Assembly (NCBI GenBank): GCA_951406725.2
Contig: OX597816.1
Location: forward strand, 112,096,001 to 112,160,000
DNA from: Octopus vulgaris
Lineage: Eukaryota
Length of the DNA stretch: 64,000 nucleotides
Direction: 5' to 3'
Made by a program: the position numbers and the translations under genes. The notes below the pieces were generated by a model. That model searched no databases, was not told the DNA's origin, and saw only the letters and a program-made list of their open reading frames with translations. This document shows positions 4,199-63,012 of this stretch, one piece after another. Every line of letters starts with the position of its first letter. Position 1 is the stretch's first letter.

Positions 4199-5126
4199 CT
4201 CATATTTCGTCCACACTCATTGGCACTACACTGCCTACTATATTCAATCCTTCCTTCCCAGAATACCAGTTCTCTGAAGTTTTAACCTTCCATATTAGTC
4301 AACTTGCAGTTATTCCAAATAAGTATTGGTTTCAAATTTTGGCACAAAGCCAGCAATTTCGTGAGAGTTGGGTAAAGTCAATTACATTGACCCCAAAATG
4401 ATAGAAGGCAAAGTGGACTGTGGTGGCGTTTGAATTCAGAACATAAATTTGGAAGAAATACAACTAAGCATTTTTTCCAAAGCGGTGACAGTTCTGCTAG
4501 CTTACTACCTTACATTCCAAATACACACTGATTTCAAATTTTGGCACTAGGCCAGTAATTTTGGTGGGAGGGGATAAGTTGATTACATTGACCCCCCAGC
4601 ATTCAACTGCTACTTATTTTTATCAACTCCAAAAGGGTGAAAGGCGAAGTTGCTCTCAACAGAATTTGAACTCAGAACGTAAAGACAGACAAAATACTTC
4701 CAAGCATTTCACCTGGCAAATTAATGATTCTGCAAGTTTACTGCATTGTCCCAAATAAATATTAACCAAAACAATCTCTCTGAGAAGGCCATGAACACAA
4801 GCCATTCATTCAAATACAAGCCAATGCCAAAGATAATAGAATGTTTTCTGAAGTAACACTTCAATGGGGGAACTGAAGTATACTGGAAGTATACTGCCAG
4901 AGAGTTGAAGCTAAGAAATGGACTGAACCAACAGGTTGGCAACTTAAAAGATTTGCATACCATATGTGTGAATGTGTGTATATGTCTGAATGGTGTGGAG
5001 GAGATATGCATGCATGTGTGTATATTGTAATATTGGTATCTGTTTTGAGAAGCACATTAGGACACAATATATTTTGTCGTTCTTACTCTGTTTATATCTA
5101 TATAACTGGGATTAACGACTGCCATG

Positions 5127-5206
5127 TCTAGCAGATATGTGTCCAGTACTGAGGAAGGGTAAGACCCTGAAACCAGTTCTGGTCTACTGGTCCTGTTACT
5201 GCTGGA
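5127..5206 (+). ncRNA. Type I hammerhead ribozyme (extended, structurally complete)
   Basis: Stem I CCAGTA(5143-48)/TACTGG(5185-90); core CTGAGGA (5149-55); stem II AGGG/CCCT with TAAGA loop; GAAA (5169-72); stem III ACCA(G)/(C)TGGT; GUC cleavage triplet ending at C5184. A distal stem I helix TCTAGCAG(5127-34)/CTGCTGGA(5199-5206) follows an 8x8 internal loop. Confidence 0.85.
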
Positions 5207-5349
5207 TGGGAGTTGTTCACTCCCTTATTTGCAATATAATGGACACATATTGTGTTATTAACCAGCTGGAGGAGGTGCCCTTCTGAGGTTAATAAGCATA
5301 GTAGCATTGTTCTGTACAGAACAACCATGTTGAGGTGGCAACAACCGTT

Positions 5350-5429
<80 letters not shown>

Positions 5430-9451: not shown

Positions 9452-10326
9452 CGAGGTGGAATCAAAAAGTTCCTGTACTGATTCTGTAGCATGCCAACAG
9501 ATAGCAGCACATGGTTGCTTGCACAGTAAGAGCTAGCAGTGACCTTCATGAGGCAGTGCACCAAGTGACATTGCTATGTTTACTTTGCAAGTTGTGAAAT
9601 TTGTGTTTTTGTGATCACGTGTATGCTGTAGTCTGCGATTTTGTCATGGACAGGAGCAAAGAGCCAATGTTAAATTTTGCACTAAACTTAGGAAGTCTGC
9701 TACAGAGACACTGAACATGCTTCAGCAAGCTTGTGGCAGCAAAACAATGGGTCTTACACAATGTTTTGAGTGGTGTAGGTGTTTCAAAAGCAGAAGAATG
9801 TCTCTGGAAGAGAATGGGTGATCTGGAAGACCTACCACAAGCATCAACCCTGGAAATGTGGCATTGTGCATCGAGAATTTGTTCCCCAAGGTCAAACCAT
9901 CAATTGAGAGTTCTACTGTAATGTTTTGAAGTATTTGAGGGAGGGCATTCATTGAAAGCAACCAGATTTGTGAAGCGTGAAGAATTGGATTCTTCACTGA
10001 GCTCACCTCACTAGTGAGTTTCTCACCAAAAATAACATGGCACTGCTTCTTCCGTACCCACCCTATTTGCAAGATTTAGCAACTGCAGACTTCCATCTCT
10101 TCCTCCAAGTTGAAAATGCTGCTCAAAGATCACTGTTTTAACACTGATGTTAAGATCAAGAGCGAATTGCAAAAGGTCCTTGACTAGCTTACAGAAAACA
10201 ACTTCCAGGCCAGATTCCAAAAGTGGCTGGGATGGTATATTGCTGTGCAAGGTGACTACTTCAAAGGAGATGATGTCAAAACTTAAGTTAACATAACTAG
10301 TCTGGGAACCTTTTGATACCACCTCA
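9452..10326 (+). mobile_element. Internally deleted mariner (non-autonomous), ~875 bp
   Basis: TA-flanked imperfect ~28-bp TIRs (cgaggtggaatcaaaaagttcc / ggaaccttttgataccacctca). Decayed transposase: EQRANVKFC...SGRPTTS joined directly to GIVHREFVPQGQTIN...HPPYLQDLATADFHLF. Confidence 0.88.
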
Positions 10327-13931: not shown

Positions 13932-15223
13932 CGAGGGGCGTTCAATAAGTAATGCCCCTGACCCACTTCCCAAAGCAGTAGAGCAACGAAACTTGGCACA
14001 GTTATTAGTCTTTTTCTACATAGGAACCACCCAGAGTTACGCATTTCTCCCATCGTTTGATGCGGCTCTGGAGACCGTTTTTGTAGAAGAACCCAACTTG
14101 GTCCTCCAACCTGAACATGACTTCAGAAATCAAGGCTGCATCATCTGGGAAACGCATTCCTTTCAAAAACAACTTCATGATTGGGAAGAGGTGAAAATCA
14201 GAGGGTGCAAGGTCAGAAAAGTAGGGGGGGATGGGGAGGAGTTCATAGCCATACGCCTGTGCTTCTGATCTGGCGACAAGCGAGTTGTGGACCGGAGCGT
14301 TGTCCTGCAGGAGGAGGATGCCTTTGCTGATCTTGCCCCGCCTCTTGATTTTGATAACTTCTCTTAATTTCCTCAAAAGTGAAGCATAATAGGCTCCTGC
14401 AATTGTGGTACCCTTTGCCAGGAAATCTGTCATCACTACTCCGTCCTGGTCCCAGAAGACTGTGAGCATGACCTTGCCAGCAGAGGGCTGCACCCTTGCC
14501 TTCTTTGGAGGGGGTGAGTCACGGTGCTTCCACTGCATTGACTGGGCTTTGGTCTCTGGATCATCGTGATGGACCCAGGTTTCATCCTGTGTAATCAGTC
14601 TTTTGAAAAATTTTGACTCATCTTCTTGGCACATCTCCAAATTCACCCTCGAGCACTCGATGCGTTCTTGCTTCTGGAAAGGCATGAGCGACCTGGGAAT
14701 CCATCTGGCAGACACCTTTTGCATATGCAAATGGTCATGAATGATAGTTTCCAAAGACCCGGTACTAATCTTGACCTCATGGACTATTTGGCGAATAATT
14801 ATGCGTCGATCTTCCAAAATGGCAGCCTCAACTTGACGGACAGATGCCTCATCAATGTCAAAAGGGGGCGACCAGATCTGGGAGCTGTTTCCACAGAGTT
14901 CCGACCATGTTTGAATTCACGATGCCAGCGTTTTACAAGGTCATATGATGGGGCATCATCACCATAAGTTACTTTAATTTCATCAAAAGTTTCCCGTGGT
15001 GTGCGTCCTTTCAAATACAAAAACCGGATCACTGCTCGACACTCAACAGGCTCCATTTCACACTTGACTCGGTTCAAACACCTGTAAATCAGAAACCACA
15101 ATTAGTTCAGAGCTGTAATTTGCCACTTACTCTATAGAGATATACATAATTGCACAAGCAAAATTTCAGCTAGATCAAACAAATGCAAGTGGGTCAGAGG
15201 CATTACTTATTGAACGTCCCTCG
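13932..15223 (-). mobile_element. Full-length mariner transposon (DD34D, irritans-like), 1,292 bp
   Basis: 37-bp TIRs (13932-13968 / 15187-15223, 2 mismatches) flanked by TA on both sides; encloses a transposase reading frame. Confidence 0.95.
14005..15056 (-). pseudogene. Mariner transposase with a single frameshift
   Basis: Starts MEPVECRAVIRFLYLKG... (ATG at 15056), with an HTH to GRP and a frameshift near 14860. It continues WIPRSL, TQDETWVHH, LLQDNAPVH...YFSDLAPSDFHLF (34 residues between the 2nd and 3rd Asp) to the stop at 14005. Confidence 0.92.
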
Positions 15224-15504: not shown

Positions 15505-16776
15505 ATTGAAGGTCGTCAAGTATGAAATTTGTAACAAGGTATATGGTAAACTTTGACAGCTACTCATTTTGTGCCATTATTATATTTTGACAATCTTTAT
15601 TTTTTGTTAGAAAGCTGACACATCTATTTCTTTATTCTAACTCAGTTTGTGCTTTATAAAGTATTCGTAAATCGTTTTTTGCTAGTTTTGTTTAGAGATG
15701 GATAGGTCAGAAATTTGTACAGTTTTGAAATATGAGTTCTTTCTTGGAAATACAGCATTACAGACAGCTCGGAATATTAATAGAGTATTTCATTCTAATG
15801 TTATTGCACAACAGACAGTATCAAATTAGTTTGCAAAATTTCATCCTGGTGACTTTAACCTCACAAATGAGCAATAGGGTTGACCAGAAACAAAGGTGGA
15901 TAATGACAAACTGAAAGCCACCATCAAGTCAGCTCCATCTCAAAGTGCCCGTGAATAATCGTTGTTGTTTGGTGTTTGCAAGCAATCACTATTGACTCAC
16001 CTAGTTCAAATCAGTAAAATGAAAAAGTTAGATAAGTGGGTTCGACATGAACTCAATGAAAATCAGAAACAGCAATGTTTGGAAGCCTGCATTATGCTTC
16101 TTGCTCATCACAAAAATGAATCATTTTTTAATTGAATTATAACATGTGATGAGAAATTGATCTAATACAACAACCATAAACATTCAGCATAATGGTTGGA
16201 CAAAGATGAGCCACCAAAATACAGTCCAAAAAACAAAATTCATCAAAAGAAGCTGATGATGTGTGTTTGGTGGTCTGGCGCAGGTATGATCTATTATGAT
16301 TTCATTAAACCTGGCTCATCAATCACGGCTGAAGTATACTGCAGCCAGCTAGACCAGAAACTTACAAAAAAAAAACCCAGCCTAGATTAGTAAACATCAA
16401 TTCCTATTTTATTGCAAGACAATGTCAGACCATATATCCCAAAAATGACAGTGGAGAAACCACATGAGTTGGAGTTGGAAGTTATCCATCATCCACCATA
16501 CTCACCTGATCTTGTCCCCACTGACTACCACTTCTAAAATTTGGATAACTTTTTGATAGGAAAAAACTAATTCTGACGATGTTGTAAAACAGGCCTACCA
16601 AGATTTTATTGATTGTAGATAGCCAGGCTTTTACAGTTTCAGGCTGAACAAGCCACTGCTGAAATGGCAAAAAAAAAGTGTTGACAATATGGGGTATATT
16701 TTGATGAATAAAGCTATTCATTGTATTTATAAAACATTAGCAAACTTTTTTCTTTTCTGCAAATTTCCTACTTGAT
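15505..16776 (+). mobile_element. Decayed full-length mariner (cecropia/Hsmar1-like)
   Basis: Remnant TIR tcaagta(t/g)gaaatttg at both ends. Decayed ORF from ATG 15698 to 16711 with KLDKWVRHEL, ITCDEK, LQDNVRP and HPPYSPDLVPTDYHF; many stops. Confidence 0.85.
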
Positions 16777-25754: not shown

Positions 25755-26914
25755 TACTTATTCTCTTGGTGTCTATACTGAATTGCATTAGTTGTCAGGT
25801 GCAGGAGCAACAGAATGACTCAAAAGCCAAGGTACACCTATGCATCTAAATGAATATAATCTTGTTTCACTTTATATATATATATATCTATAGATGTATG
25901 TATAAGTATATGTGTGTGTTTGTATGTGTGTATGTGCATACACAATCATACATGTACAAGTGCAAATGTATGCACGTATGCTTATATATATATATACTGT
26001 ATTTATATACATTACCACTCTCATTTATGTGTCATCATCATCATCGTCATCATCATCATTGTTTAACGTCTGTTTTTCATGCTGGCATGGGTTGGACAGT
26101 TTGACTGAGGTCTGGAAAGCCAGCAGCTGCACCAGGCTCCAATTTGATCTGGCAATGTTTCTACAGCTGGATGCCAGGTTAAAGGGTAAAGAACCCCTTC
26201 AGTAATGAATGACCATGGGATTGCACCTAGAAAGTTACCCACCAAGCACAAGTCCAAGCATGGTTGTTTATTGTCGACTAGCAGTCACCCATGCATACCA
26301 GCCTCCCCTCTCCACTCCACTGATGTTATTCAAGGGACAGGCTAGTATAGCTTGACACCAGTGACATCACAACTCATTTCTACAGAGATGCTCTCTTACC
26401 CTTTATGTGTGTGCAAGTATGCACAAAGTTTGCATAACAGCATAACAGGTAAACTATTTGAAAAATATGAATTATCCACATGATATTTCATTTGTTTTAT
26501 AATTTGTTGCAGAACTATCCAGGGATATACTATTATCACCAGTATATAAATCTACAAATCCTCAATCTGTTACTAGTTTGATAAGCACTAACATGAAACT
26601 CTCAGCCCTTGAATCAGTCAATTGCTTCTACTAAATATTAATATACATATATATTTTAAAAATTATTATAAGCAGTTACAAGTTATCTCTCCTGTCACTA
26701 TGTGTAAATGTGGGCTTATGCAGCTTCAAGGGTTTTAACTCCTATTTCTAGTAGTATAAATGCTATTCTGCACCCTCTTTCACAATTAGTGACATTGAAA
26801 TTTTCCCTTTATGGATTTATATTGCGTATAGCTGCTTATATCAATCTTTAGTATATATATATATTAGCAGTTCACTAAATCAGCCACAAATTTATATGGT
26901 AAATATATATAATA

Positions 26915-27312
26915 GGCACAGGAGTGGCTGTGTGGTAAGTAGCTTGCTAACCAACCACATGGTTCCGGGTTCAGTCCCACTGTGTGGCATCTTAGGCAAG
27001 TGTCTTCTGCTATAGCCCCAGGCCGACCAATGCCTTGTGAGTGGATTTGGTAGATGGAAACTGAAAGAAGCCTGTCGTATATATGTATATATATATATAT
27101 GCATATGTGTGTGTATGTTTGTGCTTGTCCCCCTAGCATTGCTTGACAACCGATGCTGGTGTGTTTACGTCCCCATCACTTAGCAGTTCTCAAAAGAGAC
27201 CGATAGAATAAGTACTGGGCTTACAAAGAATAAGTCCCGGGGTCGATTTGCTCGACTAAAGGCAGTGCTCCAGCATGGCTGCAGTCAAATGACTGAAACA
27301 AGTAAAAGAGTA
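26915..27312 (+). mobile_element. SINE family A
   Basis: Full-length, little-diverged copy. Confidence 0.9.
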
Positions 27313-27355
27313 ATGACAGAGGGTTTTAGCAAATCATCAAAGCAATAGGGACAGA

Positions 27356-27399
27356 CACTGCTGATGAATCTGCAATTAACAGAAGAAATTAATCTAGTG
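27356..27399 (+). ncRNA. Minimal type I hammerhead ribozyme with palindromic stem III (Penelope/retrozyme type)
   Basis: CACTG-CTGATGA-a-TCTG-caattaa-CAGA-a-GAAA-TTAA-TC-TAGTG. Stem I CACTG/TAGTG has one G.U pair; stem II is TCTG/CAGA; stem III is the palindrome ATTAAT; predicted cleavage after AUC (C27394). Confidence 0.7.
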
Positions 27400-27561
27400 G
27401 TTTTCCAACTTTGTTCATAGGACAGTTATCTCCCCTGTCAGTGTATATAAATTTATGCTTATGCAGTTTTAAGAGTTTTAGCTAATATTTCTAGCAGTAT
27501 AAATGCTATTCAGTATCCTCAATCACAATTAGTGACGTTTAATTTTCTTCTGATACATATG

Positions 27562-27925
27562 GGTGCAGGCATGGTTGTGTGGTAAGAAGCTTGCTTCCCA
27601 GCCACATGGTTCTGAGTTCAGTTCCATTGCATGACATCTTGGACAAAAGCCTTGTGAGTGGATTTAGTAGATGGAAATTGAAAGAAGTTCATCGTATATA
27701 TGTATATATTTGTGTGTCCGTGTTTGTCCCTGGCCCCGCACCATTGCTTGACAACTGATATTGGTGTGTTTACATCCCCCTTACGTAGGGATTCACCAAA
27801 AGAGACCAATAGAATAAGTACTAGGCTTACAAAGAATAAGTCCTGGGGTCAATTTGTTTGACTAAAAGTGGTGCTCCAGCATGGCCACAGTCAAATGAAG
27901 GAAACAAGTAAAGGAATAAAAGAAT
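27562..27925 (+). mobile_element. SINE family A
   Basis: Near full-length copy with a small internal deletion. Confidence 0.85.
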
Positions 27926-28429
27926 ACATATATATATATACACACACACACACACAAACTTACAATGGGCTTCTTTCACTCACAAAGCATCTTTCAGCCC
28001 TCTTGGGTTATAGTTGGGTTATATCTCAGTCAAGATGCTACACAGTGAAGCACAGAGAATCCAACATCGCATAGGTAGGAAGTATGCTTCTTAACCTCAC
28101 AGCCATGCCTGTTCAGAAGATTTTAGTAAAAATTAGTGACCAGTCAGCATAATGAAATCAAAATTATATATTCAGTTTTTCCCTATCACAATATTCTTTT
28201 AGTATAATAAACAGTATATTTACAATTTTAACACCAATTAATTCACAAGTTGCTCAATCTATTCAAATCTTCTTCATGATAAACTCACTGCAACATACTT
28301 CTTAAATGATCAAGTAACTCAGACAAAAATATGCATTTACACTGTACATACACGTTGTGTGTATACATATATATACAGATACACACACACACATGAGCAC
28401 ACACATACACATATGTACTCACACATATA

Positions 28430-28973
28430 TTGGGTTGTCCAGAAAGTACATGCCAATTTATAGTAGCTTACTTTTGAATTAGGATTTGATTGCACCTCCA
28501 TTTAGAGCACAGTTTAAGCTATCTTTTCATGGAAGAAGGTTTATGTTCCTATAACCTGTGTTAATTCTGTAACCTTTAAAATGGAAGATAAGAAAGTTCA
28601 TTTTCAGCACTTGATGCTTTTCGTTTTGCGTAAAGGAAAAATGCCTCACAAGCAACCAAAGAAATATGCACAATTTGCGGTGATGTTTCTTTATCTGAAA
28701 GAACTGTACGGAAGTGGTTCGCAAGGTTCCAAGCTGGAGATTGTAGCCTTATTGATAAAGAGCGATCAGGCAGACCATCCACTACAGATGATGACCAAAT
28801 CAAGTCATTAATAGAGAATAACCCACATTGCACAACCGAGAATTGGCAGAAAGCCTCAACCTGTCAAAAAAAGTTGTTCATGAGTACCTGGTAAAGCTTG
28901 GGTACACAAATCGCTACGATGTTTGGGTACCACATGAGTTGAGTGAGAAGAGCCTTTTGGATTGCATTTCCAT
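28430..28973 (+). mobile_element. 5' half of a mariner (mellifera-like)
   Basis: TA + ttgggttgtcc TIR start; MEDKKVHFQHLMLF..RKGKNASQA..KWFARF..RSGRP..RYDVWVPHELSEK; breaks off at the junction with an RTE LINE. Confidence 0.88.
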
Positions 28974-30522
28974 CTGTCTTCCTAGGTCTACCTCTACCCC
29001 GGATTCCTTCAACTATTTGGGAGTGGCACTTCTTCACACATCTTTCCTCATCCATCCATAGTACATGACCATACCAGTGTAAACGTCTCTCTTGCACGCC
29101 ACATCTGATACTTCTTAGGTCCAGCATTTCTCTCAGGGCACTTACACTCTGTCGTGTGTGCACACTGACATTACACATCCAGTGGATCATGCTAGTTTCA
29201 TTTCTTTCAAGCCTACGCATGTCCTCTGCAGTCACAGCCCATGTTTCACTACCGTGAAGCATGGCAGTTCACACACATGCATCAGACAATCTACCTTTCA
29301 CCCTGAGTGAGAGACCCCTTGTCACCAGTAGGGGTAGAAGCTTTCTAAACTTTGCCTAGGCTATTCGTATTCTAGTGGTGACACTCTCTGAGAATCCACC
29401 TCCACTACTAACTTGGTCACCTAGGTAGCGGAAACTATCAACTACTTCTAGTTTCTCCCACTAGAGTGTGATGGAATCTCTTTTCTGAGTATCCGTGGTG
29501 TCTATTGCCCCTGTGCATCTGCCGCACATGAAAGCTATCTTCTCGGTTAATTTTCCTTTGATGTTGCTGCACCTCTTATGTTTCCATAGCTTACACTGGG
29601 TACATCTTATGAAGTTTCTACCTACACCTTTTCTACAGATCAAGCAGGGCCACCTACCTGAAGGGGTGTGTGATGAGTTCGCCTTCCTACTTACTATAAC
29701 TTTGGTCTTTGCTACATTGATACTAAGGCCTTTTGATTCTAAACACCCGAAATTTCTTTTCGAGTTCCAGTAGGAATTCTTCTATGAGGGCCAGGTCATC
29801 AGCACAGAGGAGCTCCCAGGGGCAACCCGTCTTGAGTTCCTCTGTTATTGCCTGGAGGACTATGATGAATAAAAGGGGACTGAGGGCTAAACCTTGGTGG
29901 ACTCCTACTTCTACCCGGAATTCTTCACTATACTCGTTGCCAATCCTAACCTTACTACCGGCCTCTCTGTATAGGGCCTGTACAGCCATTATTAACCATT
30001 CATCAATCTCCAGTTTGCACATCGCCCACCAGATAAGGGATCAGGGGACCCTGTTAAAGGCTTTCTCCAAGTCCACGAAAACTAAGTAGAGGGATTTATC
30101 TTTAGCTAGGTATTTCTCCTGCAGTTGTTGAGCCAGGAATATGGCATTAGTGGTGCTTCTATCCGGCACAAAACCGAACTGCATCTCATCTAAGCAAACT
30201 CTCTCCCTAATGAGATGGGCTATGACCTTCTCTGTGACCTTCATCACCTGATCCAGCAGTTTAATACCCCTGTAGTTATTTCTATCTAGAGCATCACATT
30301 TACCCTTGTAGCAGTTGACTATGGTGCTGCTACCCCAGTCACTGGATATGACTCCATTATGAACTACCTGGTTTACAATGCGGGTGACTAGGCCATAGCC
30401 CACGCCACCAGATGTTTTAAACATCTCAGCAGTGATTCCTGATGGACCGGGGGCTTTTCCTGGCTTCATACCCTTAATTGCTTTATCTACTAGGGAGCTG
30501 TCTATTGGGATAGCTGGTCCTT
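28974..30522 (-). mobile_element. RTE-clade LINE fragment (reverse transcriptase region, decayed)
   Basis: KPGKAPGPSGITAEM, NYRGIKLL, QFGF, FVDLEKAFNRVP, GVHQG..LSPLLF, LCADDLAL, a Cys-rich module, LHGSETW, RRLHWYGHV, GRGRPRKT; frameshifted. Confidence 0.92.
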
Positions 30523-30739
30523 GGCAAGATAAACTGTAATGAATATATAATACTGTATACTATGCAAGTGTATATAGTTCATATTTTTATAAACTAAATG
30601 TGAAATTTCTGTCTTATAATATTTACTAATGCTGATTCTATTTACATTACTTGAATTTAATTCCTCTCTATTTAATGCAGTATGTAAGATAGTTGGGTGT
30701 AAATATATTCAATTATCATCATGAAATTCTCTCTCAATC

Positions 30740-34638: not shown

Positions 34639-34901
34639 ATTTTTTTAATAGTGACACTTTTGGGAAAATTTTGTAGTTTTAATAAAAGCATATTATTCTA
34701 CCTTTGGTATTCGAGTACTCTTTCTTCTGCCTTGTTTTGTACTAATGTGCTCACCTGTGTGTGTATATATGTGTGTAGATACATATATATATATATATTA
34801 ATATTTTGCATAAGCATAACAAGACTAATAACCTGGCGTAGAACTCAATGTATGTATGGTCCAGAACACAACGTTAGATGAGTATAAAGAGCTAATGAGA
34901 A

Positions 34902-35317: not shown

Positions 35318-35804
35318 AAGATAAGACCTGTTAGGGGCTTTAAAACTTTAAGTAGCACGGAATTTGAATCAAACTGTTCTGATCCATGTGTTGAGTGCCC
35401 TTCTTTCATTCATTCACTCACTCGTATATATGTGTGTGTATACACACACATATATGTATAATATGTATGTATGATATATGTATGTCACATATATATATAT
35501 ATATATTGTATGTTTGTAATCCATAAATCAAACTTCACAAAAAACAGTCTATGTAAAGAGAATGGGCTAGGTATATTTTTATACCATCAAAAAACATTAT
35601 TAGTGTTTGTGACATGTCTGATCACCAGTTTTGCATCAAATATTGCAATTAGGACGTCAATATCGTCTACAGGCAATATTTGATTCAAAACAAATGGAGA
35701 CATTGTGATTACACTCTGTACTCAATACTTTATTCTGAAGAGCATATGTATATAGATAAAGTTCTAACACCAGGCTATAAGAATCACTATGTCTAAGTGT
35801 TCAC

Positions 35805-36228
35805 GTTTTTCTATCTGTTGTTATTTATCTATCTAACTATTGTATCTAATTTCTCCTCTATTAATTCTGCCCGACCAAGTCTCGCTCTATCATCTATTTT
35901 CAACCCTCGCGTATTTGTCTATCGATCTCCGCCATCTTTGAAGCCTGTTCCCTTAATACACTTCCGCCTTGTCCAAAAATTCCTGTTCCGGTCAATTTCT
36001 TTACTTAAGGCAGCAACATGTGCTCTCTCACTCATTCACTTAGCAGCTATAATCTCGAGCACAGCTAAGTTTGAATGCTTATTTTATTTTCACTTCACTT
36101 CTCGACCAATCATACATGTTTTTCTATCTGTTGTTATTTATCTATCTAACTATTGTATCTAATTTCTCCTCTATTAATTCTGCCCGACCAAGTCTCGCTC
36201 TATCATCTATTTTCAACCTTCGCGTATT
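35805..36228. repeat. 111-bp direct repeat, period 313 bp
   Basis: 35805-35915 and 36118-36228 are identical except for one base. Confidence 0.92.
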
Positions 36229-36727: not shown

Positions 36728-36840
36728 ATATATATGTATACCGGAGTAAACACATAAATGTGAAACAAGGTGGAAAAAAGAGTACTCAAATACCAGTGGT
36801 AGAGTAATATGCTTTATTTAAAGCAGCAGAAAATTCAACA

Positions 36841-36885
36841 AAACCTGTTACTCTGAGTTTCACGTTCCTGTTCATCAGACAGTTT
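36841..36885 (-). ncRNA. Minimal type I hammerhead ribozyme motif (left arm of inverted repeat)
   Basis: Minus strand reads AAACTGT-CTGATGA-ACAGGAACGT-GAAA-CTCAGAG-TA-ACAGGTTT. The core is intact, stem III is near-palindromic ACTC(A)GAGT, stem I is CTGT/ACAG, and stem II carries one mismatch. Confidence 0.65.
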
Positions 36886-36909
36886 AAGCAACAAACCATC
36901 ATATAGCAA

Positions 36910-36954
36910 AAACTGTCCAATGAACGGGAACGTGAAACTCAGAGTAACAGGTTT
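36910..36954 (+). ncRNA. Hammerhead motif, core-mutated copy (right arm of inverted repeat)
   Basis: AAACTGT-CCAATGA-ACG-GGAA-CGT-GAAA-CTCAGAG-TA-ACAGGTTT. Stem II is perfect with a GNRA loop, but the core reads CCAATGA instead of CTGANGA. Confidence 0.5.
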
Positions 36955-37123
36955 TGTTGAATTTTCTACTGCTTTAAATAAAGTATATATATGTATATGT
37001 ATATATAATATGAGTAGCTTAGTGAAATACTTTCTTACAGGTTCGGATATACCTCAAGCAAATTGGAACTGGTAACAAGTTTTATTCATATACATCACTG
37101 CTTAGCAGTGTTACCCCATATAT

Positions 37124-37297: not shown

Positions 37298-39188
37298 AAT
37301 GTCTTGCTATCATGAAAGAAAAAGTAAAAAGGCGTGCTATAGAAGAATAAGACTTATAATGAAAACTGAAAACTGAACATAACTTTAAAAATTGCTTAGA
37401 AGTCATTAACACCCAGGCACTTCCAGTAGCCCAGTACAGTTTTAATATCATTAATTGGAATCCTTTGGAACTCCAACACATAGACAGGAGACAAGGAAAC
37501 TATTAGCATCTAATAAAATGCACCATCATAAGGCAGACGCTGACCATCAGGACCTATCTAGAAGCATTAGGGGAAGAGGAATGATGCAATTAAAACTTTG
37601 CTATAGGAATGAACAAGTACTTATCTAATACAAAGGACTGGGTGCTGCAGCTTTTATGCAAATATGAAAACAGCAAGAAGTCACATTCTATTGTCAAGGG
37701 AGCTAGTAAATTTACAAGGAAACTTGATGTGAACCCTGAATTAGATGAAGAATCCTATATCACTGCTACCAAACAAGCAAAACAAATCAAATTGAATGCT
37801 AAAAAGAATGGACAGAAGTAACATGAGGAATGGTGGTGCCATAGGTCCTAGCATCATCATCATCATCATCATCATCATGAATAATATATTCTTCAAAGTC
37901 AAAATATCTATGATAACCAAGCAACAAACCATCAGTGGCTGAGGAGCTTAGGATTGAAGCAAGAAATTGAAGGCACAAGATCAGAGCTTGTCACCAGAAA
38001 TTACCAAGCTAATGTCCTAAAAAATGGTGCTGACCCAAAATGCAGATTCTGTCACATTTGATGAAACAATTGACCATCCTGTTTCAGACTGTCCAAATGA
38101 ATATAAAAATTGCTACGATAGAGTTGGACCGTATTTACATTGAAAAATATGTAAACACTATCAAACCAACACTCCTGCTAAGTGGTATGAACACCACCCA
38201 GAGCCAGTGGTTGAAGGTAAAAACGTTGCCACCAACTGGGATTTTCTTGTGAACATTGATAGAACAGTCAAAATTAATCAATTTTGCTCAGTACCACTGA
38301 TTTGCTTGTTAGTTACTTGACCTTAACCAGTTGTGCTTGTCCCTTAGTAGCTGCTTATGGATAGACACTGCAGTCCCTGCTGACAAGAATATTACCCAAA
38401 AACGAAGTGGAGAAACTGTCGAAGTACAAAGATCTTGAAATTGAAGAATTCAAGATGTGAAGTATGAAGATAAAAGCAATACCAATAATAATTGGAGCAT
38501 TGGGTATGATAAAAAATGTATGAACAAAAATAGAGGCAGCCATACCTGGATCTGCAATATTACACACTCTCCAAAAAGTAGCCGTACTAGGAACAGAACA
38601 CATTCTATGCAAGACACTATAATTTCAATAGTACAATGGGGTGCCAAAAAGTTCCTGACTTTGGGTTAAAGAATATACAGGAATGATCAATCAATTCTGA
38701 TTTTATTCAACATATTCCCCTCTCAGATTCACACACTTATTGCAGCAATCTTTCAGTTTTTCTAAGCCTTGTAAAAGAACACAGAAGGTTGGGTCTCCAA
38801 CCAGGCCTTTCATGATACTCTAAAATCCAGGAACTTTTCAGCACCTCCTCATACAATCCAGATAAAAAAAAAAACCACAAATGCAAGACACTCTATACTG
38901 TAAATACCCAATAAAATAAACAACCCCAACAACATGTACTCTACAGGTGGGATACCCAACCAGAGAACACAATTCACATTATGCACACAACACACATTAC
39001 AAACACTAATACAACAAGCGATTCAAGCAAAACCCCATAACAAAACAGACATGCAAGAGAGTACCAAGAAGAGTTTGCACTCCCCCAATACTAACAAAAA
39101 CAAGAATAAACAGCACTACATACATCTCAACATGGAAATGTAGCAGTTGATGCTGCAGAAATTTGCCTGAAGCTATCAAATATCAAAC

Positions 39189-39190
<2 letters not shown>
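37298..39190 (+). mobile_element. R4/Dong-like RLE non-LTR retrotransposon, 5' truncated, decayed, ending in (TAA)n
   Basis: INTQALPVAQYSFNII, MHHHKAD, RGRGMMQL, TRNYQANVLKNGADPKCRFC..ETIDH..DCP (CCHC knuckle), KWYEH, WDF, IDTAVP, EKLSKYKDLEIE, PIIIGALG; non-coding tail to a (TAA)n run. Confidence 0.8.
38634..38851. mobile_element. Mariner-derived MITE (~220 bp) inserted in a LINE 3' region
   Basis: TA-flanked imperfect TIRs ggggtgccaaaaagttcctg / ccaggaacttttcagcacctcc; no ORF. Confidence 0.7.
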
Positions 39191-39247
<57 letters not shown>

Positions 39248-39276
39248 TAGTAATAATAATAATAATAATGATAGTA

Positions 39277-39322
<46 letters not shown>

Positions 39323-39342
39323 TAGTAATAATAATAATAATA
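39188..39342. repeat. (TAA)n microsatellite
   Basis: Run with periodic gatag interruptions; a second run lies at 39899-40000. Confidence 0.97.
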
Positions 39343-39899
39343 AATGCCCTGATGCAGTACCAGGCAGTGGCTCTCATGGCTTCTGATCTTAACTGATTGG
39401 AAGTGTTATCATGTACATTGTTTTGTCTTGGTATAAAAGATGGGCTACAGCAAATATTCTGCTCAATACCACAGATTTGCTTGTCAGTTGTTTGACCTTA
39501 ACCAGTTGAGCATGTCCCTTAGTGGCTGACGATATGTGCATCTCTGATCACAAGCAGAAGTAGTGGGGGAGCATCATAGCCATGTGTTGAGAGGGATTCT
39601 TTGGGGTTTGAATAGATCACCTCTGGAAACATGGGTGGTTCTTTCAACATCCTTAAACAACCCTTATTCAGGGACCTTTTGAGCGGGATGGGCTACTCAA
39701 CCTGAAGAAAATTCTAACTGGGCTCCACCTGCAAGGTCATGTGCTGTTTATCTTGATATGAGATCACCATGTCGCGCACATATGGTTGTGATGCATGTGC
39801 CTGGTGTACCCTTATCAGACGGGTAGTCATGATGGGTATATTGGGCTTCGTATATTTTACCCCAGTGTCACTTTGATGGCATACACTGCTCTCTCACTC
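39343..39899. mobile_element. ~557-bp non-coding element embedded in (TAA)n, copy 1
   Basis: Begins aatgccctgatgcagtaccaggcag and ends ctctctcactc; TAA arrays on both sides; a diverged copy lies immediately downstream. Confidence 0.75.
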
Positions 39900-40557
<658 letters not shown>

Positions 40558-40569
40558 ATAATAATAATA

Positions 40570-44772: not shown

Positions 44773-46511
44773 CAATTGTTTTTATGGATGATAACCCTTT
44801 CTTATTGTTAAGCACTCAGCCATAAATCAGATGAGGAACCTGTTTTGTCAGCCAGGCAGTTTGAGGAAAGCAGAGCGCAAAGTATTGTGCAATGCCCGGA
44901 AGCATATAACACAATGAGTTTCAGTAGGTTTACAATTCCTGACCATGTGATTTACTGTCTTAATCTTGTAGTCATTGTTCCTATTATAAATACAGAAACT
45001 TTGTATGGGTTTTTCTTACATTTTTCTTTCTTAAAAAAAAAAAAATTTAAAAATAAATAATTAAAAACTTTTAGTCATACCTAAGAAAAATGTACATCTC
45101 CAAATCAAAGAACTTTTTCTGTCCATTAAAACAAAATATATATACATATATAAAATGAAAATAGTTACAAAAAATACCATAGAATTATTGTATTAATGGC
45201 CTATTTCTCACCTTTCAAGATGTTTAGACGTTATAAACATGAATGGATGTATTTGATATTGATTAAGCAATGATAAAATGTGACAGCTAACTAAAATCCT
45301 TTTAGGCATTGAGATTTCACTTAAAGTATGCCATCCTTTCTATCTTTTTTACATAGTCATCTAGAAGAAAAGAAGAAGAGAACAAGCACTCATGCACAAA
45401 CTGTCTTGTATGTATGCCCATTTGTGTATATACGTCTGTGTTTGTACATGTGTATATGTATGGATGTATGTATGTATATGTGCGCATATATATATGTGTA
45501 TGTATATATGTATTTGCATGTGTATGTATCTATGCATAGACGCATAAAACATACACATGCATATTAACACATAGACACATACACAAATACATACATGCAC
45601 ATGTTATGGGTATGGCATCTTTACAGTGAAATGTGGTTTGTTTTACTCTTTTCCTCTTTCTCTATTAGAATGTTTCAAATATGATTTAGAAATTATTATT
45701 GAGAATATTTGAATAAAAGTACAAAAACTACTGAATTTTATCGATTCTTTTCAGGTTAACTTCCACAAATATGCTCATTCTTTTATCAAAATATGCTCAT
45801 GTGTGAATGTGTGTATTTGTGTATGTACATATATGCATATAAGCATGTTTGTGTGTGTGTGTGTGTGTATGTGTGTGTATTTATATGACATGTTTTCATA
45901 TATGTATATACATATGTTTATATGTAATATACTGAAATATGAAGAGGAAGGCTAACAGAGAAATGGGTGAGAGACAAAGAAAGTGTTAAACAGATCAAGA
46001 AATAGGTACACTAATGTACTTTTGCTCATTTTAATGTGTGAAATTGCACACAAACACACACACACACACACACACATCCTTATGATTTTCTGAATAGATC
46101 TACATATATACATCATTTTCTAGATTTACATGTTAGTTAAAAATAAAATAACTTTTATAAAATACAAGTTGTAAATAGATGGTACACCCATATACCTACC
46201 TGCATACACATACGCAACTATAACCACTATTATTTATTTTGATTGCATTTTTTTTCTGACTTATAGGTGCGTAACTGATAAAGTATACACACACATGCAC
46301 ACACACACACACACATATATATATATTATTGATAATTGGCATAAGTTACAGAGTGACTCAAGGGCCAAGAGTTTCGTGTGTTGGCACTTATAGACACATG
46401 AAACAATTGGCCCTTGAGTTAGTCTGTAACTTCAACCAATTATTAATAAAGAAACACACATATACTCATGTTGTGAATTCTGTTTTCCTGCCTGCATCAT
46501 CAAACCTATAA

Positions 46512-49675: not shown

Positions 49676-50384
49676 ATGTATGTATGTATGTATGTATGTA
49701 TGTATGTATGTATGCATGCATGCAAGTATATATAAATGTGTGTATGCATGCATGCATGCAAGTATATATAAATGTATATGTGTGTGTGTGTAAATACATA
49801 CACATACACACACACACCCATGTATATATATAAAATCATTATTTCAGATATGTTATTTTGGCCCTTATCTCTACATTCACCTACATTATACACATGCTCT
49901 GTCACCAACATTTTGGATAGTATATTCTAAAGAATTAATTTCATTTTTCATTCTATATACAAATGCATGAGCGGTCTTTTACTGAAAAGGAGAGTATTAA
50001 CTTCTACTTTTTATTCTTGCTAAGATTGTAATAAATCTAATATTAAATTTTCCCATTTTATTATTTATCAAAGAGAAAGTTGTGAACAGACTGTATTGTT
50101 AACATGCCACACAAAACGTTTAGCAGCATTTCATCCGTCTTTAAATTCTGAGATCAAATTCCACTGAAGTCAGCTTTGCCTTTATTCATGTGGGGCTCGG
50201 TAAAATAGGTAACAGTCAAGTACTGGGGTCAATGTAATCGACTTGCCCCGTCCCTCAAAATCTTTCACCTTGAGCCAAAATTAGAAAAAAATGTTTACTG
50301 AAGAGAAAACAATTAACTACAACTTTGTATACTTGCTAACATTGTGATAATTTTAAATTTTATTGTTTTATTATTTGTCTTATT

Positions 50385-62310: not shown

Positions 62311-62439
62311 GTTGATGAAGAAGCTTCCATCCAGTTGGTCGAAAAGTCATCAACAACAGATATAATATTACTGCAATACTGGTTCCCAGCCACTCACATG
62401 GCTTTGGTAAGTCTGCTACAGGGACATTTAGCATATTTT

Positions 62440-63012
62440 GGCAATCTTATGGTGATGAGGCAATGGGTCATACACAATGCTTTGAGTGGCGTGAGCACTT
62501 CAAAAGTGGAAGAATGTACCTAGAAGACAATGAGGGATCTGGAAGACATACCACAAAGTCACCCCTAGAAATGTGGTATCACATATCGAAAAATTTGACC
62601 CCTAAGACCAGACCATAAATTGAGAGTTCTACTGCAACGTTTCAAAGCATTTGAGGAAGAACATTCAGTGAAAGTGACCAGATCTGTGGAGCATGAAGAA
62701 ATGGATTCTTCACTCTTGAGGTTCTCACAAAAAACAACATGGTATCATTTCCACACCCATCCTATTCACCAGATTTAGCACCAGCTGACTTCCATCCCTT
62801 CCCAAAGATGAAAATGCAGTTCAAAGGTAACTGTTTTAACACCATTGTCGAGATCCAGAGTGAATTGTAAAAGGTCCTCAACTTGCTTACAGCAAACAAC
62901 TTCAAGGCTGGATTCCAAAAGTGGCAGGAATGCTGGTACTGGTGTATTGCTGCACAAGGTGACTGTTTCAAAGATGATGTTAAAACATAACTAGTCCTGG
63001 AATTTTTATATA
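62440..63012 (+). mobile_element. Second copy of the internally deleted mariner family (5' truncated)
   Basis: Aligns by eye to 9720-10320, including the same HTH-to-catalytic-domain deletion junction; contains HPSYSPDLAPADFHPF. Confidence 0.85.

Follow-up and report, generated by a model that had tools for sequence, protein, structure and literature searches.

What left a lone hammerhead ribozyme motif between two diverged direct repeats in the octopus genome, and did the ribozyme and the repeats ever belong to one mobile unit? The locus lies in a 64,000-nt stretch of Octopus vulgaris DNA, hereafter the window, which is AT-rich animal DNA dense in microsatellites and SINEs; its SINE resembles one that is abundant in octopus. 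A first-pass annotation of the same stretch had proposed that the hammerhead and its surrounding repeats are the remains of a small element related to retrozymes and to the terminal repeats (pLTRs) of Penelope-like elements (PLEs).

Inspection of the motif (27356-27399, forward strand) by structural descriptor, by pattern search and against Fig. S3 of PMC4209133 identifies a type I hammerhead whose helix III is short and palindromic. Helix I joins 27356-60 to 27395-99 through five pairs, where the core-adjacent pair is G.U. The first box, CUGAUGA (27361-67), is followed by an A at 27368 that stands unpaired between positions 9 and 10.1. Helix II (27369-72/27380-83) comprises four pairs and a 7-nt loop with a spare A on each side, such that A 27384 precedes the GAAA box at 27385-88. 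The palindrome AUUAAU (27388-93) runs into C17 at 27394 to complete an AUC triplet, and cleavage is predicted after 27394. The core boxes CUGANGA and GAAA and the UH cleavage site are all present. The hammerhead reported in the first-pass annotation is confirmed as a type I motif, and its palindrome stands, but the description of the third stem as loop-less needs slight correction, as helix III consists of two pairs and a 2-nt palindromic loop. The base of helix II, on whose off-consensus state the first-pass annotation is silent, can be read as a U-A pair plus an extra A or, alternatively, as an A.A mismatch at 10.1-11.1; the motif has no G10.1-C11.1 pair stacked directly on GAAA, a feature that is consensus (>80%) and not universal. 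To judge from its sequence, the motif looks like a PLE-type hammerhead that would depend on dimers for cleavage.

The motif is far beyond chance. Across the 64-kb window the type I descriptor finds two sites, 27356-27399 and 5144-5189. Among 1000 dinucleotide block shuffles, type I sites of any kind turn up in 16 windows, and sites whose helix III is short and palindromic in one. With permuted cores run on the real window, tight hits number 0 for 539 decoys versus 1 for the true core, and loose hits number 6 in total over the 539 decoys versus 2 for the true core. A pattern search gives one match in the window versus 0/100 shuffles, and allowing one core mismatch in the hammerhead scan adds one further site only, a poor one. 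The descriptors were fitted after the motif had been seen, such that the chance figures are flattered, where the decoy control is less exposed to this effect. Rfam reports no hammerhead for the focal motif, whether the gathering threshold is applied or E is relaxed to 10. Rfam also misses the well-formed hammerhead at 5144, and its silence therefore does not discriminate here. An Rfam match to HAR1A scored 19.8 bits with E 3.5, where the cut-off is 40 bits, and was set aside as chance.

The second type I hammerhead (5144-5189, forward strand, within a context of 4720-5352) is better formed than the focal one. Its helices I and II have 5 bp each, its helix III is near-palindromic and its GUC site lies at 5184. 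The distal part of helix I is beyond chance (6/1000), and the dimer is predicted at -30.0 kcal/mol versus -32.5 kcal/mol for the best fold. The motif is solo and unrelated in sequence to the focal motif, with a (TA)n run 168 nt after its cleavage site, and it would be better suited to a test of activity. Within a frame at 4857-5027 lies an NGLN stretch of the sort found at the end of PLE GIY-YIG domains; searches for such a GIY-YIG end upstream of this ribozyme gave no hit.

The predicted folding of the focal motif was evaluated with energy models, which leave out the tertiary contacts of the core. The best fold of the isolated 44-nt motif is a non-ribozyme hairpin at -5.7 kcal/mol, which 44/200 shuffles equal (z -0.74), and the monomeric ribozyme fold is predicted at +2.3 kcal/mol. 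For the dimer, the double hammerhead reaches -7.6 kcal/mol versus -15.4 kcal/mol for the best fold. Extension of helix I into a distal helix is not beyond chance, as 346/1000 flank shuffles match it. On these models the focal ribozyme is probably inactive now. The first-pass annotation had called the element decayed, a view that both the helix II defect and the energy models support; the deviations in helix II each have natural precedent, but decay would be the simpler reading.

The folding results are also among the points in favor of a chance resemblance to a hammerhead that happens to lie within an unrelated local duplication. The minimum-energy fold is not a ribozyme and is unexceptional among shuffles, the distal helix I is matched by shuffled flanks, Rfam finds no hammerhead, and the descriptor was fitted to a motif already seen. 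We nevertheless consider such a coincidence very unlikely, given a single shuffled window in 1000, none of the 539 decoy cores and none of the 100 pattern-search shuffles. That the window contains another, independent hammerhead, also missed by Rfam, shows that such motifs are common in this genome.

Comparison with published PLE hammerheads points to the origin of the motif. Four features recur in PLE hammerheads according to PMC4209133: positions 9 and 10.1 are separated by a base, 10.1 and 11.1 form a G-C pair, helix III is palindromic, and the motifs occur in covarying families. The focal motif has the first and third of these and lacks the second. In Fig. S3 of that paper, the helix III architecture of the focal motif is that of the six Drosophila Penelope rows; the Drosophila Penelope hammerheads have the same small helix III, with two pairs and a 2-nt palindromic loop, for which a second copy is needed. 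As described there, metazoan PLE hammerheads are likewise type I with one additional base separating the first box from helix II, and PLE hammerheads likewise have a 5-bp helix I without a significant distal helix. In contrast, the focal helix II opens with U-A, where the rows of Fig. S3, by our count, have G in 51/56, U-A in 2/56 and A-U in 3/56. The extra A before GAAA has a counterpart in 1/56 entries of the corresponding column, whose row is not assignable. The focal helix II, at four pairs, is also shorter than in many PLE motifs, and no PLE ORF is attached. Because of this ribozyme architecture together with the chance controls, we hold a PLE or retrozyme ribozyme to be the very probable ancestor of the motif, irrespective of the unit that carried it; in this respect the earlier assignment to a PLE- or retrozyme-like ribozyme is well supported.

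We next consider the repeats. Copy R1 (26681-26803, forward strand) has a sharp left edge, with homology fading within ~10 nt on its right. It is followed by spacer X (26804-26914), which is 76% AT with (TA)n runs and single copy in the window, and by a secondary SINE insertion of 398 bp (26915-27312, forward strand) that has 8 long relatives in the window. The sequence immediately 5' of the ribozyme (27313-27355, forward strand) is non-coding and likewise single copy in the window. After the hammerhead, a linker (27400-27423, forward strand) leads to copy R2 (27424-27546, forward strand), which begins 29 nt past the predicted cleavage site and ends 15 nt before an independent, older SINE at 27562-27925. 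The pre-ribozyme sequence, hammerhead and linker together (27313-27423) are termed Y. R1 and R2 align over 123 nt, ungapped, with 81% identity (23/123 differences, 19%) and a spacing of 743 (BLAST E 1.5e-29; 0/500 shuffles reach it), in agreement with the diverged direct repeats of ~125 bp, 743 bp apart, that had first been noticed. No homology is found to the left of R1, and extending the alignment to its right gains at most 3.6 bits.

The inner SINE interrupts an older arrangement. Compared with the majority sequence of 8 other copies, it has differences at 14/313 sites (4.5%), and the SINE at 27562-27925 departs from the majority at 33/289 sites (11.4%). The two SINEs share just 2 derived sites and lie at different offsets; they are independent insertions. 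At 4.5% versus 19% for R1/R2, the inner SINE is younger than the split of the repeats if rates are similar, and its removal is therefore legitimate. Removal gives a period of 345 bp, or 342 bp if a doubtful 4-bp target duplication is counted, which bears out the earlier claim of a 398-bp SINE between the repeats and a period of ~345 bp without it. A joint duplication of R with a SINE was ruled out by the 2 shared derived sites, the ages of 4.5% and 11.4% and the offsets. R was also considered as a duplicated exon and rejected, as it shows no synonymous bias in any frame, no Pfam hit and no homologue. R has no convincing conserved fold (two-sided changes in 1/26 and 1/19 pairs), and a 26-nt stretch of it, searched as an exact pattern in prokaryotic genomes, gave 0 matches, an expected and uninformative outcome. 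Further features adjoin these elements. A 36-nt inverted repeat (26643-26678/26829-26864; 81%, partly (TA)n) flanks R1 and may be chance; this match links X to sequence outside the putative unit and is reached by 9/6332 real-sequence controls and by 6/1176 AT-matched ones. To the right, the 5' half of an old reversed SINE (27926-28114, reverse strand) has a microsatellite tail that abuts the SINE at 27562.

The divergence of the repeats bears on whether the ribozyme could have been recruited by the host and still function in a host transcript. CUGANGA, GAAA and UH are all intact though the neighboring repeats differ by 19%, but an intact core would be expected about one time in five for 15 positions at ~10% decay, by a rough estimate. 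The off-consensus base of helix II, the predicted deficit of the double hammerhead relative to its competing dimer fold and the lack of any recognized host exon in the window also speak against host recruitment, which we judge highly improbable.

Whether R, X and Y constitute a 345-bp unit is a separate matter. The first-pass annotation had described a decayed 1.4-mer, and here the geometry fits, where the element spans 1.36 periods with one ribozyme; the second ribozyme, the further copies and the pairing of a circle do not follow. The repeat accounts for just 123 of the 345 bp and does not include the ribozyme, which ends 24 nt short of R2 and lacks a counterpart to the left of R1. A pair-HMM applied to a possible ribozyme remnant left of R1 returns -18/-9 bits, no different from the median of the null (354/685 and 382/688 real-sequence controls score as well), compared to +58 and +52 bits for the R1/R2 pair. 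A decayed second ribozyme at this position looked plausible when aligned and was rejected, given 793/2000 controls in free local alignment, 23/300 in anchored alignment and the negative pair-HMM odds. The window contains no other copy of R, X or Y and no continuation of the unit to the right of the right-hand SINEs, and Tandem Repeats Finder detects no tandem array at the focal locus. The putative 345-nt unit is non-coding with 32% GC, and X resembles AT-rich flank. When the monomer envisaged in the first-pass annotation was built with the SINE removed, the modeled 345-nt circle folded no better than shuffles (-61.6 kcal/mol versus a shuffle mean of -63.4; z +0.36; 126/200 as good), and its opposite strand was equaled in only 4/100 shuffles. 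Decay could have erased the self-pairing of such a circle.

We also considered whether the flank left of R1 contains a decayed copy of X+Y in inverted orientation, as would be characteristic of PLEs, and did not adopt this reading. The whole alignment is reached by 2/581 controls. Beyond its first AT-rich arm the log-odds are at most 0, and 19-67/1500 controls match from the ribozyme end onward. Part of this flank belongs to a separate foldback repeat. The foldback family is represented at 46315-46448 by a MITE-like foldback of ~135 bp with arms of ~60 bp, and 26580-26654, just left of R1, is a decayed arm of this family (E 2e-6; 0/600 controls). Another foldback with long arms, at 36820-36990, is related to 34678-34737.

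Self-comparison of the window reveals four local direct pairs without other matches, of which the other three (periods 313, 316 and 660) have no hammerhead. Such partial repeats therefore arise in this window without ribozymes. As the three other repeat spans make up ~3% of the window, a chance ribozyme inside one of them is unlikely, though not negligible. The pair at 35802-36228 is a young partial repeat of 114 bp (98%, period 313, no hammerhead) that overlaps a 121-aa frame without a Pfam match. At 49978-50379, a 92-bp direct repeat (75%, period 316) surrounds an apparent SINE fragment and is possibly an old long target-site duplication. A tandem at 38281-40569 has a period of 660 and is 89% identical; a 66-73-nt piece occurs in it three times. 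The focal region has no homology to these other local repeats or to the 5144 region.

These observations bring in a different account of the geometry, in which X and Y form a 222-bp insert with the ribozyme near its 3' end, and R is host DNA that target-site duplication over a long stretch, or repair, left on both sides of it. The window does contain other ribozyme-free direct repeats of 92-114 bp around spacers of 200-225 bp (35802-36228 and 49978-50379), and R has neither another copy in the window nor a convincing conserved fold. X, however, does not look element-like, and target-site duplications exceeding 120 bp are unusual. On balance, we regard a long duplication of host DNA as unlikely.

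Coding sequence was sought as a further indication of the parent element. Pfam finds no GIY-YIG or PLE-like domain in 266 complexity-filtered frames of at least 60 aa, a comparison in which Pfam is weak on short decayed fragments, nor in 117 frames of at least 25-30 aa around both ribozymes (the two sets overlap). The 222-bp spacer left after SINE removal contains no reverse transcriptase (RT) or GIY-YIG frame. Protein searches with the frames over the ribozyme and R identified no family, a result of small weight, since the best library matches to the RT of the window are themselves just 48-73% identical. A cystatin exon on the strand opposite the ribozyme was considered and rejected. Among 1.84 billion proteins a single hit emerged, a multi-cystatin at E 2.9e-6 summed over 6 stretches. 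This hit is ascribed to chance, as it shrinks to a 16-21-residue match (E 0.02-0.7 relative to the window), Pfam lends it no support and no further cystatin exon was found. Credible Pfam hits in the window are confined to pieces of mariner-type transposase and one RT region. The mariner-type sequences comprise a 303-aa DDE-domain frame and several fragments (14005-15101, reverse strand; 16193-16387; 28634-28891; 9615-9818; 62319-62615), and the RT region (28867-30559, reverse strand) is a broken non-LTR retrotransposon with RT pieces followed by a PHD-finger-like segment.

The coding search and the boundaries of Y bear directly on a simpler origin, in which an autonomous PLE left only its 3' end, truncated on the 5' side, as ~27313-27555. 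R1 would then be either another fragment or a local duplicate of the tail of this end, X would be host sequence, and there would never have been a 345-nt unit. PMC4209133 describes most genomic PLE ribozymes as single motifs on truncated copies. The segment 27313-27561 abuts TA-rich, SINE-bearing sequence at both ends, and X is flank-like. The 5144 ribozyme is solo too, and the distance from its cleavage site to (TA)n, 168 nt, compares with 167 nt at the focal locus, although these are two cases only. A solo PLE end would nevertheless need a second event to insert, 345 bp upstream and with unchanged orientation, a copy of precisely the tail that follows the ribozyme, and Y and its neighborhood contain no PLE coding remnant. 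We treat this origin as possible but doubtful.

As to known classes, the locus has features of two. Animal retrozymes of ~170-400 nt, and of 350-390 nt in mussel, are given in PMC7229834; the 345 period falls within this reported range, which counts for a 345-bp unit. As PMC7229834 and the preprint 10.64898/2026.07.22.740005 describe them, non-LTR retrozymes are non-coding and low in GC (below 45-50%) with a similar period, values that the putative focal unit would fit, and the preprint reports retrozymes as derived from PLE terminal repeats. Axolotl retrozymes, by the same accounts, have type I hammerheads with a weak palindromic helix III that cleave as dimers, and the focal motif is alike in architecture. 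In contrast, retrozymes occur as dimers to multimers with a ribozyme per unit and give highly self-paired circles, none of which is found here. The active element of the 2026 preprint, by definition, consists of two consecutive units with complete ribozymes, unlike the focal locus. The locus should not be filed as a retrozyme, because a tandem of ribozyme-bearing units was sought and is absent. The second class is that of PLE pLTR tandems. According to PMC8557442, 5'-truncated partial tandems are typical of PLEs and, as here, place a 5'-truncated direct repeat before a ribozyme-bearing copy in a TA-rich setting. Unlike these tandems, the focal locus has no RT/GIY-YIG ORF separating its repeats, its upstream repeat contains no ribozyme, and an inverted 5' copy is not supported. 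Nor should it be filed as an autonomous PLE, as an ORF is missing and the repeat does not include the ribozyme.

Our tentative preference, held at somewhat less than even confidence, is that the locus is a fossil 1.4-mer of a ~345-nt unit, derived from a pLTR and preserved in partial-tandem form. With the solo PLE end and the long host duplication it has in common the premise that the ribozyme is of PLE or retrozyme descent. For such a fossil, the transcript of a tandem source locus would have been cut by paired hammerheads acting through the palindromic helix III, leaving a unit-length RNA of ~345 nt that circularized or stayed multimeric. A PLE reverse transcriptase acting in trans may then have copied from the R2 end through the ribozyme and spacer and into a second round. 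Had copying stopped 29 nt short of the next cleavage site, the product would carry one ribozyme and a duplicated 123-bp tail. The copy would subsequently have decayed (~10% per repeat), taken up a SINE in the spacer and probably lost cleavage. That R, X and Y formed one unit is something we infer, as we do every step of RNA processing and mobilization. A more specific proposal is that the locus is the fossil of an undescribed family of ~345-nt non-LTR retrozymes in a cephalopod, whose younger members would be tandem, give rise to circular RNAs and be mobilized by one among many Penelope families. We consider this family possible though rather unlikely. No description of an octopus retrozyme was found in the literature searched, which consisted largely of papers outside subscription.

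The genomic setting places the find in proportion. In the supplement of PMC13282606, PLEs account for 6.83% of the O. vulgaris genome in 190 families, and PMC8967140 lists Penelope among the most enriched ancient coleoid repeats. PLE hammerheads number thousands per animal genome according to PMC4209133, and PMC6962438 gives 235 annotated hammerhead loci for the giant squid. For an octopus, a density of one or two such motifs in 64 kb is nothing unusual, and a single decayed copy matters little. The focal element most likely represents a fossil piece from a jumping-gene family that is common in animals, an ordinary find and not a new type of element.

The value of the locus is as a probe, with which to ask whether this lineage has a retrozyme family and whether that family derived from a particular Penelope terminal repeat. 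The derivation of retrozymes from Penelope terminal repeats is examined by sequence only in Xenopus in 10.64898/2026.07.22.740005. If true, the retrozyme-family reading would add cephalopods to the animals (coral, mussel and axolotl) in which the pathway has been shown, and would provide an invertebrate test of the model in which retrozymes originate from pLTRs.
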